Of a stretch of DNA of 64,000 bases, positions 33,279 through 45,925 are shown piece by piece. Every line of letters begins with the position of its first letter. Positions within the stretch are counted from its first letter, which is position 1. The stretch lies in sequence record PQ390715.1. One strand, written 5' to 3'. Below the pieces are notes generated by a model. The model did not search any database. It saw only the letters and a list, made by a program, of their open reading frames with translations, and was not told the DNA's origin. The stretch is from Escherichia phage SHEFM2K. A program made the position numbers and the translations under genes.

Positions 33279-33674
33279 TTAGATAACCTGGCGGCGTTTA
33301 CTGTATACTGTTACACGATTACCCTTACGGTCGTGTCGGATCTCTTTCTGGTTGCGAACCAGTTCACTTGGACGCTTAAGGTTTGCCAGGTGATCCGCGT
33401 GAGTCCAAGCGGTATGGTTTGTCTGTACTTTGATATCAGAATCAGCGATAAATTCATCTTGTGCGTTAAGTACTGCCGCCAGTAAATCCGCTCGTTTTAG
33501 TTCTGATGCTGTTAGTACTGGCTCCGGTGAATTCACAATATCAGAGATTTCTTTGAACTGTACGGCCCAGCGTTGGCCTTTCGGTGCATCTTTGCCCATG
33601 TCTTTAAATGCTGCTCCTTCCTCGCGTGCAACAATACGGGCAGCTTCACGGGTAGCGTAGAATTTAGTAATCAT
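33279..33674 (-). CDS. hypothetical protein (paralog of 45333-45599)
   Basis: shared KFYATREAARI..KDMG and C-terminal HDRKGNRVTVYS; start chosen by paralog alignment. Confidence 0.65.
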   Translation of the reverse strand: MITKFYATREAARIVAREEGAAFKDMGKDAPKGQRWAVQFKEISDIVNSPEPVLTASELKRADLLAAVLNAQDEFIADSDIKVQTNHTAWTHADHLANLKRPSELVRNQKEIRHDRKGNRVTVYSKRRQVI

Positions 33675-33769
33675 GGTATACATCCTATTAGTTGAGATAG
33701 TACTACAAGTTAGAGTCTATTATAAAGTACTATCTGGGCAATGTCAAATAGTACTTTAAATGGATTCTA

Positions 33770-34093
33770 TTACATGTCTTTCTTACGTTTTACATCGTAG
33801 TATCGAACTGTAATTTCTTTGTTGATCTCTTCCTCGATGCGGTGAATAACTTTTTCTTTCGGGTTGAAACCTATAACGGTTTCTTTAATGATCTCCAAGC
33901 CCGTGTATTCGCCTTGTGTACCGTAACCGTATGTAAAGGTTTCGTGTCCCAGGTCTTCCCAGCGGTCGCCAATTAACGCTGACACGTAGCAAGAGTGGTA
34001 AGTATTGCCGTTCCGATCAGTCCAGCGATTAACTTTAATGTCAAAGGAGGTTACAATTTTCAGTTCTACTTTCTGGGTAAGGATCATAGCCAT
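33770..34093 (-). CDS. hypothetical protein (paralog of 39999-40343)
   Basis: shared GNTY, YGYG/YGYE and C-terminal DVKRKKD. Confidence 0.65.
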   Translation of the reverse strand: MAMILTQKVELKIVTSFDIKVNRWTDRNGNTYHSCYVSALIGDRWEDLGHETFTYGYGTQGEYTGLEIIKETVIGFNPKEKVIHRIEEEINKEITVRYYDVKRKKDM

Positions 34094-34178
34094 TTTTATT
34101 TCTCTCTCTTTGTTAGGAGGGGAACCATTCCCCCCTTGATGTAAACTATTATACAGTACTAAGATACTTTGTCAATAC

Positions 34179-34454
34179 TTAATTATTATAAATGTCGTGA
34201 ATAGTGATAAAGTTTTTACGACCGTAAACCTGCAAATCAATATCAATGTAGTGCTTATCAAGTACATCCTCGACGCTTAACGCGGTGTCGTGAATATCTT
34301 CGTAGAATTGAGGATCTACAATCTTGCTTAAGTCATCCGGCGTTAACTTATCGTTAAGCAGTTGAACCGCCTGGATATCTGCTTCACGTTTCCAGTCTTC
34401 CAGGTTAGTAGTCAGTACTTGTTCGATTTCGTTAGCTGTCAGTAGAATCCGCAT
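34179..34454 (-). CDS. hypothetical protein
   Basis: 91-aa ORF. Confidence 0.6.
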   Translation of the reverse strand: MRILLTANEIEQVLTTNLEDWKREADIQAVQLLNDKLTPDDLSKIVDPQFYEDIHDTALSVEDVLDKHYIDIDLQVYGRKNFITIHDIYNN

Positions 34455-34677
34455 TTTAATGTTTCCTTATCAGGGGTTGATGTAAGTATTATACTCGTTT
34501 ACTTTCTATTGTCAAACTATTTTATCAGGGGAGTTTTTCGTATGTCTTACTCCTGGACTACTTAACGGGGTTACTTGTTTCGTTCCCCGTCCTGATGTAA
34601 AACATTATACTTGATTCTAAGTACAATGCAAGTACTTTTTTAAAAATAGTTTTCAGTACTATCCACCAGCATATAAT

Positions 34678-34760
34678 AGATACATTTATGCACCCTGTGG
34701 GCTGATTTGTTTCTATGCGTATATAATAGCAAAGGGACTGACCGGAGTCAATCCCTTTTT
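34678..34760 (+). repeat. repeated element, copy C
   Basis: near-identical to copy A. Confidence 0.5.
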
Positions 34761-34769
34761 CAAATATTT

Positions 34770-34919
34770 TTAAACTTGTTTTGGGTTGCGATAGGTGATA
34801 GCGTTCGGGTACATTTGTTTAATGTTATTCCATGCCTGGTTAACATTGTAACCACTTGAGCGAATCAGTTGGTTACTACCGACACCTTGAAACACTACTT
34901 CGAATAAGAATTCTTTCAT
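34770..34919 (-). CDS. small hypothetical protein (49 aa)
   Basis: below ORF-track cutoff; ATGA-coupled to upstream small ORF. Confidence 0.35.
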   Translation of the reverse strand: MKEFLFEVVFQGVGSNQLIRSSGYNVNQAWNNIKQMYPNAITYRNPKQV

Positions 34920-35089
34920 GCTTTCACCTCGCGATCTGCTTTACCTTTACGCCACGACATTACTAATTGTTCGCGTTGCCATAAGTCGAGTGATACAAAA
35001 AGTTTTGCGGTATCACTTTTAGGATACTCGCCATTAGTACCTAACCGATAAAACAGATCTTTCAGTACTGATAATTCTACTTGAATCAT
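34916..35089 (-). CDS. small hypothetical protein (57 aa), FamB-like
   Basis: RLGTNGEY resembles FamB core; ATGA overlaps at both ends. Confidence 0.4.
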   Translation of the reverse strand: MIQVELSVLKDLFYRLGTNGEYPKSDTAKLFVSLDLWQREQLVMSWRKGKADREVKA

Positions 35090-35178
35090 TTTATTACTCC
35101 TGATTGCGTTAATACTTCTACTATTGCATGAATGATCATAAGTACAGCTAAAACAATAATCATCGGATTCATTTGCAT
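35086..35178 (-). CDS. possible 30-aa hydrophobic peptide
   Basis: MQMNPMIIVLAVLMIIHAIVEVL; ATGA-coupled; very short. Confidence 0.25.
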   Translation of the reverse strand: MQMNPMIIVLAVLMIIHAIVEVLTQSGVIK

Positions 35179-43884: not shown

Positions 43885-43976
43885 TTTTTTTAATCCTCGT
43901 TTGAGCGGGGAACCACTCCCCGCCTCGATATAAAGTATTATACGCCTTTAAACTTAGTTTGCAAGTACTTTTTAAA

Positions 43977-44588
43977 TTAATATTCGATTGATTCTACTAC
44001 GCCATCAATAACATTGAATTGATATTCGTTACCCTCAATCAGTGCTGTAATGTTTTCAGTAGTGAATTGATCCTCATATGCATTCTCTAAATCACGGTAC
44101 AACTTGCGGGATAATTCACGAATAGTTTCAGTGAGTAGTTCCTCAAGCTCATTAACTAACGTTTCTTGTTTTGCGGTTAAATCAGTGTAAGCCGATTCAA
44201 TGTACCCGCTTACAGTGTTTTCATGCGAGTAGTGGGAGTGAGAACGCTTTACACTCATCGCCAAATCATCTTCATTCAGCAGGTGACGGATTGAGCGATA
44301 CTTAGTTAATGCTCTTACCTTGCGTAAAAACTTCACTGCGTCAACGTGGTCAGTACTGATTGATGCACCGTCACCCTGGGACCAAAAACCACTGAATTGT
44401 ATTTCAGCGTCATTAATGCCATATTCCGGCAATACTGTTTCTTTATAGTGTTCAATTTCACTTTCAGAAAAATAATCGTCGTTTGAGTTTTTTTCACGTT
44501 CCCGAACCAGTTCGATAGCTGACGTTTTTTGTTCTGCGTTCAATTCAGAAAAATCCATAACGAAAGTAGTAGTAGTGATAGTTTTCAT
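43977..44588 (-). CDS. hypothetical protein
   Basis: 203-aa ORF; acidic, motifs FSGFWSQGDGASI and SHSHYSHE. Confidence 0.65.
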   Translation of the reverse strand: MKTITTTTFVMDFSELNAEQKTSAIELVREREKNSNDDYFSESEIEHYKETVLPEYGINDAEIQFSGFWSQGDGASISTDHVDAVKFLRKVRALTKYRSIRHLLNEDDLAMSVKRSHSHYSHENTVSGYIESAYTDLTAKQETLVNELEELLTETIRELSRKLYRDLENAYEDQFTTENITALIEGNEYQFNVIDGVVESIEY

Positions 44589-44811
44589 TTTGTAACTCTC
44601 ATTCAGTAGTTGATGTAAGTATTATACGCTTTTAAAAACATTTGTCAAACTATTTTATCAGGGGAGTTTTTCGTGTGCCTTACTCCTGGGCTACTTAACG
44701 GGGAGTTACTTATTTCGTTCCCCGTCCTGATGTAAAACATTATACGCCTTTAAACATAGTTTGCAAGTACTTTTTAAAAATAGTTTTCAGTACTGAATAT
44801 TAAAAAAAGTA

Positions 44812-44840
44812 TTGACAGCATTATCAAGTACTGGCATAAT
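44812..44840 (+). promoter_or_regulatory. plus-strand sigma70-like promoter (same class as 42866)
   Basis: TTGACA N17 CATAAT; downstream transcript carries CCCACCGGGTGC and GCACCCTATGGGC motifs and no ORF. Confidence 0.35.
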
Positions 44841-45014
44841 ATACCCCATGACAACAGCTAACCCACCGGGTGCACAATTGTAACTATACTAAACTACTTT
44901 TTCTATAGATACACTCCCGCACCCTATGGGCTACGGCTTATCTGCCAATGAATACATTATGCCAGTACTGACAAAATAAGTCAATACCGGCAATTGTAAA
45001 GATTTGTAAACTGC

Positions 45015-45245
45015 TTATACTGCAATCGCGTCCAGGCTATAATAATAATAAGTGCCGTATTGGTGTACTTTATTACCTTTTATTTCAGTACTGAATGAAT
45101 CCGAACGGTTTGCATATGATGTTAATTTAAAGTACTTTGATTTGCTGATACGTTGCCATACACCGCAGATCCGCTGTAAGTAAGTAGTTTTATTAGTGGT
45201 AGTATCTTTTACGGTTTTAACTTCAGTCATATACATATTAGTCAT
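45015..45245 (-). CDS. hypothetical protein
   Basis: 76-aa ORF; GGAG SD. Confidence 0.55.
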   Translation of the reverse strand: MTNMYMTEVKTVKDTTTNKTTYLQRICGVWQRISKSKYFKLTSYANRSDSFSTEIKGNKVHQYGTYYYYSLDAIAV

Positions 45246-45332
45246 TTTTATTACTCCAGGTTATAGGCGGGAAGTGTTCCCGCTCTCGATGTAAAACATT
45301 ATACTCCATTAAACATAGTTTGCAAGTACTTT

Positions 45333-45599
45333 TTATTCAAGTACTGCAATCTTTTTAGTACTGTACACAGTAACGCGGTTGCCCTTGCGGTCGTGCTTTA
45401 TTTCTACCACTCGACGCGATACACTATCGGGACTTTTTAACGCCGCTAACCAGTACTGTAATGATCTGGCTGTACTACGCTTTACAATGGCCCAACGTTT
45501 ACCACGTTCCGATTGTACGCCCATATCTTTAAACGTTGCCCCGTCCTGGCGTGCGGCGATCCGAGCTTGTTCACGCGTCGCAAAATACTTAATATTCAT
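45333..45599 (-). CDS. hypothetical protein (paralog of 33279-33674)
   Basis: start at ATG 45599 (MNIKYFATRE). Confidence 0.65.
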   Translation of the reverse strand: MNIKYFATREQARIAARQDGATFKDMGVQSERGKRWAIVKRSTARSLQYWLAALKSPDSVSRRVVEIKHDRKGNRVTVYSTKKIAVLE

Positions 45600-45685
45600 G
45601 CTGTTGCCCTTATCGTTGGTGTATGAATAAAACACTATTATAAAGTACTATCGCAAAAAAATGATAGTACTTTAAATAAATTCTA

Positions 45686-45925
45686 TTACATTCCAACCAT
45701 TGCCGCACGGATCGCAGTAGTGCTATATTTGAATCCGTCCGGTGTTTTATCTTGTCCAGTCTGTTCTAAAAATAACATCATATGACGGGCCGCATCATTG
45801 CGATTAGTGCTATCGTTAATAAAGTCCTGGGCCAACCGGTATAATGATTCATCGTTATTAATCCAAAGGCTTACATTCCAATGAGTTTTGTTTTTGTGAC
45901 CTAAGAACATTTTTGATTTAGCCAT
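45686..45925 (-). CDS. hypothetical protein (paralog of 43645-43884)
   Basis: 79-aa ORF. Confidence 0.7.
   Translation of the reverse strand: MAKSKMFLGHKNKTHWNVSLWINNDESLYRLAQDFINDSTNRNDAARHMMLFLEQTGQDKTPDGFKYSTTAIRAAMVGM

Follow-up and report, generated by a model that had tools for sequence, protein, structure and literature searches.

Three gene pairs in the terminal repeat

The window analysed here is a 64,000-nucleotide (nt) stretch of the genome of Escherichia phage SHEFM2K (PQ390715.1), and the subject of this analysis is a block of small early genes organised as single-gene transcription units, or cassettes, in which six genes form three dispersed pairs of homologues (1a/1b, 2a/2b and 3a/3b). 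The best match of the region from 33.0 to 46.5 kb is phAPEC6 of the genus Asteriusvirus (94.5% identity over 98% by megablast), and the phage is assigned to the jumbo coliphages of this genus (121Q/phAPEC6-like). Position 48090 of the window aligns to position 1 of phage vB_Ec-M-J, and position ~28295 to the end of the annotated 21,525-bp direct terminal repeat (DTR) of that phage; because the block is collinear with the annotated repeat (positions 21525 to 1), the interval from ~28.3 to 48.1 kb is identified as the DTR of the present phage, of ~20 kb. The DTR of fEgEco12, of ~21 kb, has been confirmed by PhageTerm and restriction digests (PMC13070987), and one of 20,668 bp has been predicted by PhageTerm for Sharanji (PMC11895373). 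The ~40 open reading frames (ORFs) of the block encode proteins of 44 to 203 amino acids, nearly all annotated as hypothetical, and the identity of alleles compared slot by slot across Asteriusvirus genomes ranges from 71 to 100%. The features considered below are as follows.

28295-48090, minus strand: DTR, the "single-gene block" of ~40 early cassettes, all transcribed from the minus strand
33238-33256, minus strand: terminator-like hairpin and T-run downstream of 1a
33279-33674, minus strand: gene 1a, phrog_8127, 131 amino acids, the copy at the putative ancestral position
33719-33747, minus strand: promoter of 1a, TTGACA-17-TATAAT, with a leader that lacks a hairpin and has AGTACT boxes on its flanks; the best match of the upstream region of 1b
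33770-34093, minus strand: gene 2a, phrog_6246, 107 amino acids, in a clade of family 2 found only in Asteriusvirus
34115-34175, minus strand: promoter (34148-34175) and 5' leader hairpin (34115-34136) of 2a
39999-40343, minus strand: gene 2b, phrog_6246, 114 amino acids, apparently a xenologous allele of the Stephanstirmvirinae/rV5-like type
40378-40406, minus strand: promoter of the 2b slot, TTGACA-17-CATAAT with TG, followed by a leader lacking a hairpin; the putative left recombination arm
43606-43625, minus strand: hairpin and T-run downstream of 3a; this hairpin and that of the 5' leader bracket 3a as a 17-nt direct repeat (16/17)
43645-43884, minus strand: gene 3a, DUF7249/phrog_871, 79 amino acids, an accessory cassette
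43904-43964, minus strand: promoter (43937-43964) and 5' leader hairpin (43904-43924) of 3a
45333-45599, minus strand: gene 1b, phrog_8127, 88 amino acids, a short extra copy
45600-45685, minus strand: intergenic module upstream of 1b, with a -10 box TATAAT at 45637-45642, a poor -35 box and no hairpin
45686-45925, minus strand: gene 3b, DUF7249/phrog_871, 79 amino acids, present in all Asteriusvirus genomes examined
45926-46017, minus strand: promoter (45976-46003) and hairpin (45944-45964) of 3b, forming a chimeric module

All 422 ORFs of the window were compared with one another by BLASTP, and these three pairs were the only ones with E < 1e-4 inside 28-47.5 kb. The products of 1a and 1b are 36% identical (E 1e-21), their N-terminal and C-terminal blocks aligning on either side of ~45 extra amino acids in the centre of 1a. 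Those of 2a and 2b are 29% identical over 109 amino acids (E 1e-8; 29-33% over all comparisons made), and those of 3a and 3b are 67% identical over all 79 amino acids (E 3e-38). Profile searches placed both partners of each pair in one family: phrog_8127 for pair 1 (E 5e-35 and 5e-27), phrog_6246 for pair 2 (4e-35 and 4e-42) and phrog_871 for pair 3 (6e-29 and 1e-29), the last pair also scoring 50.7 and 45.0 bits with the Pfam family DUF7249, whose cut-off is 27. No Pfam family was matched by pair 1 or by pair 2. An earlier note, made by inspection of this DNA, had named the same six ORFs as three paralog pairs on the strength of shared motifs; the coordinates and the pairings hold, and all six ORFs lie on the minus strand. 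The similarity is not confined to short motifs, since the pairwise alignments span the full length of the proteins; the motifs themselves are present as quoted, except that KFYATRE reads KYFATRE in 1b.

At the nucleotide level the partners are 54%, 44% and 67% identical (pairs 1 to 3) and their downstream flanks are unrelated, so that the pairs do not represent recent segmental duplications. Identity at third codon positions is 33% for pair 1, 28% for pair 2 and 54% for pair 3, and is saturated for pairs 1 and 2. Flanks were compared using the 105 nt upstream of 36 genes, each region being ranked among 35 upstream regions. By this measure the upstream regions of pair 1 and of pair 3 are reciprocal best matches, those of pair 2 have mutual ranks of 23 and 9, and no specific likeness was found between the downstream flanks of any of the three pairs. 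The statement that the flanking modules of the partners are alike is thus correct upstream of pairs 1 and 3, and incorrect upstream of pair 2 and downstream of all three. A terminal-repeat or assembly artefact was also considered as the source of the pairs and was rejected, both copies of each pair lying inside one copy of the DTR and having diverged.

Cassette design and recombination footprints

The minus strand from 29.2 to 47.7 kb carries 31 near-consensus sigma-70 promoters, 11 of which are perfect (12/12, TTGACA-16/17-TATAAT), with the tract AAAAAGTAC in an A/T-rich region upstream. The order of elements in a cassette is a consensus sigma-70 promoter, usually a G/C hairpin, a Shine-Dalgarno site and a small ORF. 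Hairpins of 7-9 bp were found in 18 of 20 folded leaders (minimum free energy -12 to -21 kcal/mol), beginning 11-13 nt past the -10 hexamer, which is 4-6 nt past the predicted start of transcription, and followed by the Shine-Dalgarno site and ATG. The stems vary by paired changes, as in GGGGAGAA/TTCTCCCC versus GCGGGAA/TTCCCGC. Folding gave no hairpin in the leaders of 1a and 2b, and none was visible by inspection in the promoter-only leader of 1b, which lay outside the folded set. Most of the module hairpins were rejected as canonical intrinsic terminators for want of a T-tract, and because of this a terminator role is unproven. The same design of promoter, hairpin, Shine-Dalgarno site and ATG is found in phi92, 3A1_SA_NWU and RaK2.

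Comparisons between genomes, made by tblastn synteny and targeted alignments, indicate a different history for each pair. Family 1 is almost restricted to RaK2-like jumbo phages: both 1a and 1b are present in every Asteriusvirus genome examined, and the RaK2-like jumbo phages of Klebsiella have a single copy, which is 41% identical to 1a and 35% to 1b. The gene order in RaK2 is g04 homolog, ORF352, ORF353, g01 homolog, and 1a is syntenic with ORF353; because the single copy of RaK2 sits between homologues of the genes that flank the 2a-1a segment, the position of 1a is taken as the ancestral one. Homology upstream of 1a and 1b begins at the stop codon of unrelated upstream genes, and the two share a hairpin-less leader with two AGTACT boxes that RaK2 does not have. 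These observations fit a putative old, lineage-specific duplication of promoter and gene together.

Gene 2b has relatives of at least 90% identity in 8 records only, the next relatives (77-82% at the amino acid level) being alleles of the phi92/phAPEC8/rV5-like type in Phapecoctavirus, Justusliebigvirus (phi92 gp231) and rV5-like phages. At the same slot most Asteriusvirus genomes, including ELP-22 and 121Q, hold a third allele type, "2c", which is 33% identical to 2b and 36-38% identical to 2a. In a five-way alignment the sequence matches ELP-22 and 121Q at 97-100% across the 2b-slot promoter as far as ~+10, and is identical to them again from the last eight codons of 2b (GATGTTAAACGCAAAAAAGATCTTTAA) onward; between these borders the identity is 67-90% to the 3A1/phi92 allele and ~45-55% to 2c. 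Because the similarity switches to the 3A1/phi92 type between the promoter leader and the last eight codons, 2b is best read as an imported allele, apparently an allele replacement by double crossover. Pair 2 would then be an old paralog pair, the second slot of which was later overwritten by an allele of the type found in 150-kb Stephanstirmvirinae/rV5-like coliphages, with one crossover in the promoter leader and the other in the conserved last eight codons.

Gene 3a is 93.7% identical in amino acids and 92.4% in DNA to the allele of Phapecoctavirus 3A1_SA_NWU. Among the relatives of 3b, Phapecoctavirus alleles show 91-92% identity to it, rV5-like alleles 83-87% and phi92 gp232 77%. In a neighbour-joining tree of 122 sequences, the smallest clade that contains both 3a and 3b comprises 67 of the 122, many of them from contigs of 135-155 kb, and DUF7249 extends to cyanophages and to phages of Ralstonia and Vibrio. 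The DUF7249 alleles have near-identical ends and a divergent, hypervariable centre at about amino acids 25-60. Phage 121Q lacks 3a, and its slot holds a homologue of gene 42521-42757, a cassette that therefore occupies a different slot in that genome. Pair 3 would thus consist of two alleles of a widely shared gene, each nearer to alleles of 150-kb phages (92-94%) than to its partner (67%), and 3a may be an accessory cassette gained or lost by recombination between its flanking hairpins. The DUF7249 gene of 3A1_SA_NWU (9001-9240) is itself a mosaic, its first ~40 nt being identical to 3b and the rest 97-100% identical to 3a, a sign of intragenic recombination in the conserved 5' block.

Five events were found with breakpoints or direct repeats in a promoter, in a hairpin, or in a leader together with a conserved gene end. 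The junction in 121Q at the position of 3a consists of a 3a-type promoter, a hybrid hairpin and the start of the next gene. An extra gene of 121Q, gene 281, lies between two directly repeated copies of the 2b-slot promoter that agree perfectly over 42 nt, and a 241-nt insertion in the same phage is bracketed by a 19-nt direct repeat of a -10/start region. ELP-22 has an extra cassette (ELP22_0006), and the modules on its two sides have a perfect 28-nt hairpin repeat in common; the single module upstream of 3b corresponds to the left half of the first of these ELP-22 modules joined to the right half of the second. Because the 3b module is recombinant, similar promoters at 3a and 3b are no proof of a joint duplication of promoter and gene. 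These five nucleotide-level footprints bear out the recombination at promoter/hairpin modules that the earlier note proposed, and show the single-gene transcription unit to be the unit of evolution that is reshuffled.

Of 36 DTR genes, 11 or more have counterparts in the 17-kb early regions of phi92 or 3A1, where their order is different. Identical stretches are as long as 23 nt within modules and 68 nt within coding sequence; the annotators of phAPEC6 reported homologues from rV5, Felix O1, T4-like and N4-like phages. The shared design, the shared genes and the identical tracts make it plausible that the cassettes recombine homologously between repeated promoter/hairpin modules and conserved gene ends, as in the promoter-early stem-loop (PeSL) cassettes discussed below. 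Since the 150-kb phages use the same cassette design, the exchange probably takes place during replication and mixed infection. The hairpin may serve mainly as a 5'-terminal stabiliser of mRNA, as an attenuator of read-through, or as both, and only incidentally as a substrate for recombination.

Several other features of the modules were noted. A hairpin with a 12-bp stem (AAAGGGATTGACTCCGGTCAGTCCCTTT) is present in four copies on the minus strand (29750-29777, 32011-32038, 34731-34758 and 38407-38434) and encloses a TTGACT -35 box, followed by TATTAT, forming a promoter with its -35 box inside the stem-loop. Downstream of each of three consensus promoters on the minus strand there are ~110 nt that contain no start codon (34490-34631, 44622-44766 and 41660-41802); two of these leaders are near-identical, with two hairpins each, and run into a second promoter (34515 and 44648). 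Such start-less leaders could represent a small RNA or a tandem-promoter leader; an Rfam scan of 28-48.5 kb gave only two sub-threshold Trp-leader matches, and none at these leaders. At 29576-29594 there is a leader hairpin of the kind typical of Stephanstirmvirinae (CGTAGGGCGGCAATGGTGC), found once in the DTR and in at least 6 copies in 3A1, which hints at another possible imported cassette. When Asteriusvirus genomes are compared slot by slot between 33 and 46 kb, protein identity swings from 71% to 100% from one cassette to the next (for example genes 37578-37790, 38441-38575 and 39113-39322), which points to a probably widespread replacement of alleles beyond the three families studied.

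The whole window contains 274 copies of the palindrome AGTACT (for example at 46510-46554, 29196-29212 and 33699-33755), where 20 +/- 4 are expected. It is placed at fixed sites in the modules, overlapping the -35 box (AGTAC-TTGCAA) and just before the -10 box, and is found within genes as well; four copies spaced 13 nt apart lie near the genome end. The segments 13283-20992 and 23436-28425 are free of it. AGTACT is found in the modules of RaK2 and is absent from those of phi92 and 3A1; a phage regulator might bind to it, or it might be a target of modification. The ~1.7 kb adjoining the physical genome end (46400-48090) are without a convincing gene and carry short tandem repeats and several AGTACT-containing hairpins, and this segment may hold terminus or packaging signals.

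Origin of the pairs

Taken together, the three pairs are probably old or imported homologues that reside in a block of cassettes exchanged with related and with unrelated phages by recombination at repeated promoter/hairpin modules. A number of points weigh against this interpretation or limit it. Asteriusvirus could be donor or recipient in any of the transfers, and the difference at 3a could reflect loss in 121Q rather than gain elsewhere. Selection on promoters alone would also cause homology to end at module edges, and two of the indels show only 8-11 nt of microhomology. The trees are distance-based and the proteins short. Individual hairpins have modest z-scores (-0.8 to -5.2), T-tracts are absent from most module hairpins, and few minus-strand hairpins fit the pattern of an intrinsic terminator; recombination, mini-circles, transcription starts and hairpin function are all predictions for this phage. 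Within pair 1, the N-terminal end of 1a resembles RaK2 more closely and the C-terminal end 1b, and because the two ends have different nearest relatives, the history of the pair may include gene conversion.

The earlier note had explained all three pairs by duplication of whole transcription units in this genome and their dispersal via promoter or terminator modules, and for the three pairs as a set this is rather unlikely. Cassette indels flanked by modules do exist, as does one translocation of a cassette, and the upstream regions of pairs 1 and 3 are reciprocal best among 35; pair 1, moreover, is found only in RaK2-like jumbo phages, RaK2 itself having a single copy and Asteriusvirus both. 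Genes 2b, 3a and 3b, however, have much closer relatives in other phage subfamilies, the partners not being mutual nearest neighbours; the flanks of pair 2 are unlike, the promoter of 3b is itself a recombinant derived from a different cassette, and third positions are saturated in pairs 1 and 2. Of the duplications proposed, only that of pair 1 is upheld, as an ancient event, and the comparison with related genomes that the note called for separates an in-lineage duplication (pair 1) from xenologous alleles (pairs 2 and 3).

At the other extreme, all six genes might have been acquired independently from a shared stock of early coliphage genes, without any duplication and with the likeness of the modules produced by convergent selection for strong sigma-70 promoters and stable leaders. 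The 11 or more of 36 DTR genes that recur, rearranged, in 150-kb coliphages, the homologues noted by the phAPEC6 annotators in rV5, Felix O1, T4-like and N4-like phages, and the reach of DUF7249 to cyanophages and to Ralstonia and Vibrio phages are all in keeping with such a pool. Yet family 1 occurs almost only in RaK2-like jumbo phages, 1a and 1b have in common a derived hairpin-less leader with two AGTACT boxes that is not found in RaK2, and perfect direct repeats of 28-42 nt at cassette borders are hard to obtain by convergence, against which, in its pure form, the confinement of recombination footprints to the modules also argues; this explanation is quite improbable. That the similarities are chance matches of motifs, or an artefact of the terminal repeat or of assembly, has next to no probability: the proteins are short, the genome is AT-rich and the block is a terminal repeat, duplicated in virion DNA, but the full-length E-values range from 1e-8 to 3e-38, a PHROG or Pfam family is common to each pair, and the diverged copies lie 2-12 kb apart in a single copy of the DTR and occupy the same slots in independent genomes.

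Known systems and significance

The closest known system to these exchangeable cassettes is that of the PeSL cassettes, a form of modular shuffling already known, to which Asteriusvirus adds a new host lineage. PeSLs have been described in the T4-type phages RB49/phi1, PST/T4 and nt-1/KVP40 as a sigma-70-like promoter with a polyG/polyC stem-loop, located between ORFans of hyperplastic regions, and mediate indels and replacements there (Arbiol et al. 2010, PMC2839356; Comeau et al. 2014, PMC4122927). In both systems near-consensus sigma-70 early promoters, preceded by A/T-rich sequence, are combined with a polyG/polyC stem-loop; the modules recur between small ORFan genes of a hyperplastic region, and where close relatives differ by indels or replacements, the crossovers fall inside the modules. 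As in the DTR modules, the stem-loop of one PeSL subclass follows the -10 box, and the four DTR copies with the -35 box inside a hairpin correspond to another. The present array differs in its host, an Asteriusvirus jumbo phage (the closest records being Caudoviricetes; Asteriusvirus) rather than a T4-type phage, and in filling a long direct terminal repeat; its hairpin has an almost invariant position in the 5' leader, whereas five variable positions are found in RB49, and most of the hairpins are without T-tracts. Exchange here spans phage subfamilies (Stephanstirmvirinae, rV5-like). Terminator or attenuator activity of the stem-loop and excision of cassette mini-circles during infection are further traits of PeSLs and would be predictions for the present array.

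Morons are said, following Hendrix et al. 2000, to be single genes with their own promoter and terminator that are inserted in phage genomes, and the cassettes resemble them as autonomous accessory single-gene transcription units that vary between relatives. Morons are thought, however, to arrive by illegitimate recombination, with no conserved sequence on either side, and chiefly in temperate phages (a distinction made by Arbiol et al., PMC2839356). In the DTR, by contrast, conserved flanking modules supply the homology.

The pre-early genes of T5 are an example of an early region located in the terminal repeat of a large virulent phage; a two-step transfer of DNA like that of T5 is not known in Asteriusvirus. 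In the related "hairy" jumbo phage CBB, RpoD-like promoters are concentrated in an early region that reaches into a 22-kb terminal repeat (PMC5259590). The T5 and CBB regions and the present DTR thus have in common small early genes of unknown function with host sigma-70-type promoters in a long direct terminal repeat, but for CBB the promoters were reported with neither hairpin cassettes nor cassette exchange (PMC5259590).

Tandem arrays of paralogs in jumbo phages are the subject of a hypothesis of Hua et al., cited for phAPEC6 (PMC7247149). Expansion of gene families is common in the present genome too, where large tandem paralog arrays lie outside the DTR at 9.4-13.5, 22.5-28.2, 48.4-52.8 and 53-64 kb; these include ~27 consecutive genes of ~70 amino acids in the unique region adjoining the DTR boundary and nine plus-strand genes of ~380 amino acids. 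The three pairs differ from such arrays in being dispersed and deeply diverged, and two of them appear to be xenologous rather than products of local tandem duplication. In the Asteriusvirus literature covered by the search, no mention was found of promoters, PeSLs, paralogs or these families; the rV5 paper only lists promoters and terminators.

The protein families themselves, all three of them ORFan families, gave few functional leads. A sequence search of the PDB with one member per family found no relatives. DUF7249 is confidently predicted to form a small helical domain, for which there was no significant structural match, and the predicted model of phrog_6246 has only a weak resemblance to an RNase H/ASKHA-like subdomain. 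A profile search with phrog_6246 revealed a superfamily of 1431 cluster representatives that includes longer fusion proteins, ten of which contained no Pfam domain and offered no functional lead.

It is conceivable, though doubtful, that the cassettes form a dedicated mobile system for exchanging early genes across phage families, with the conserved G/C hairpin as a recombination site for a phage enzyme and not simply a stretch of homology. If this were true, Asteriusvirus and the 150-kb Stephanstirmvirinae/rV5-like coliphages would trade cassettes for host takeover or anti-defence during co-infection, and the terminal repeat, which is injected first, would be a variable arsenal.

The terminal repeat of Asteriusvirus jumbo phages emerges as an array of exchangeable early-gene cassettes built like PeSL cassettes, about one third of them drawn from a gene pool common to unrelated 150-kb coliphages. 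For annotation, this would mean that apparent paralogs in the DTR are often xenologs, and for the genomics of phage therapy, that the DTR is the most variable part of otherwise conserved genomes. DUF7249 and phrog_6246 appear as widespread, multi-allelic families under turnover, which bears on the choice of candidate genes for host takeover or anti-defence.

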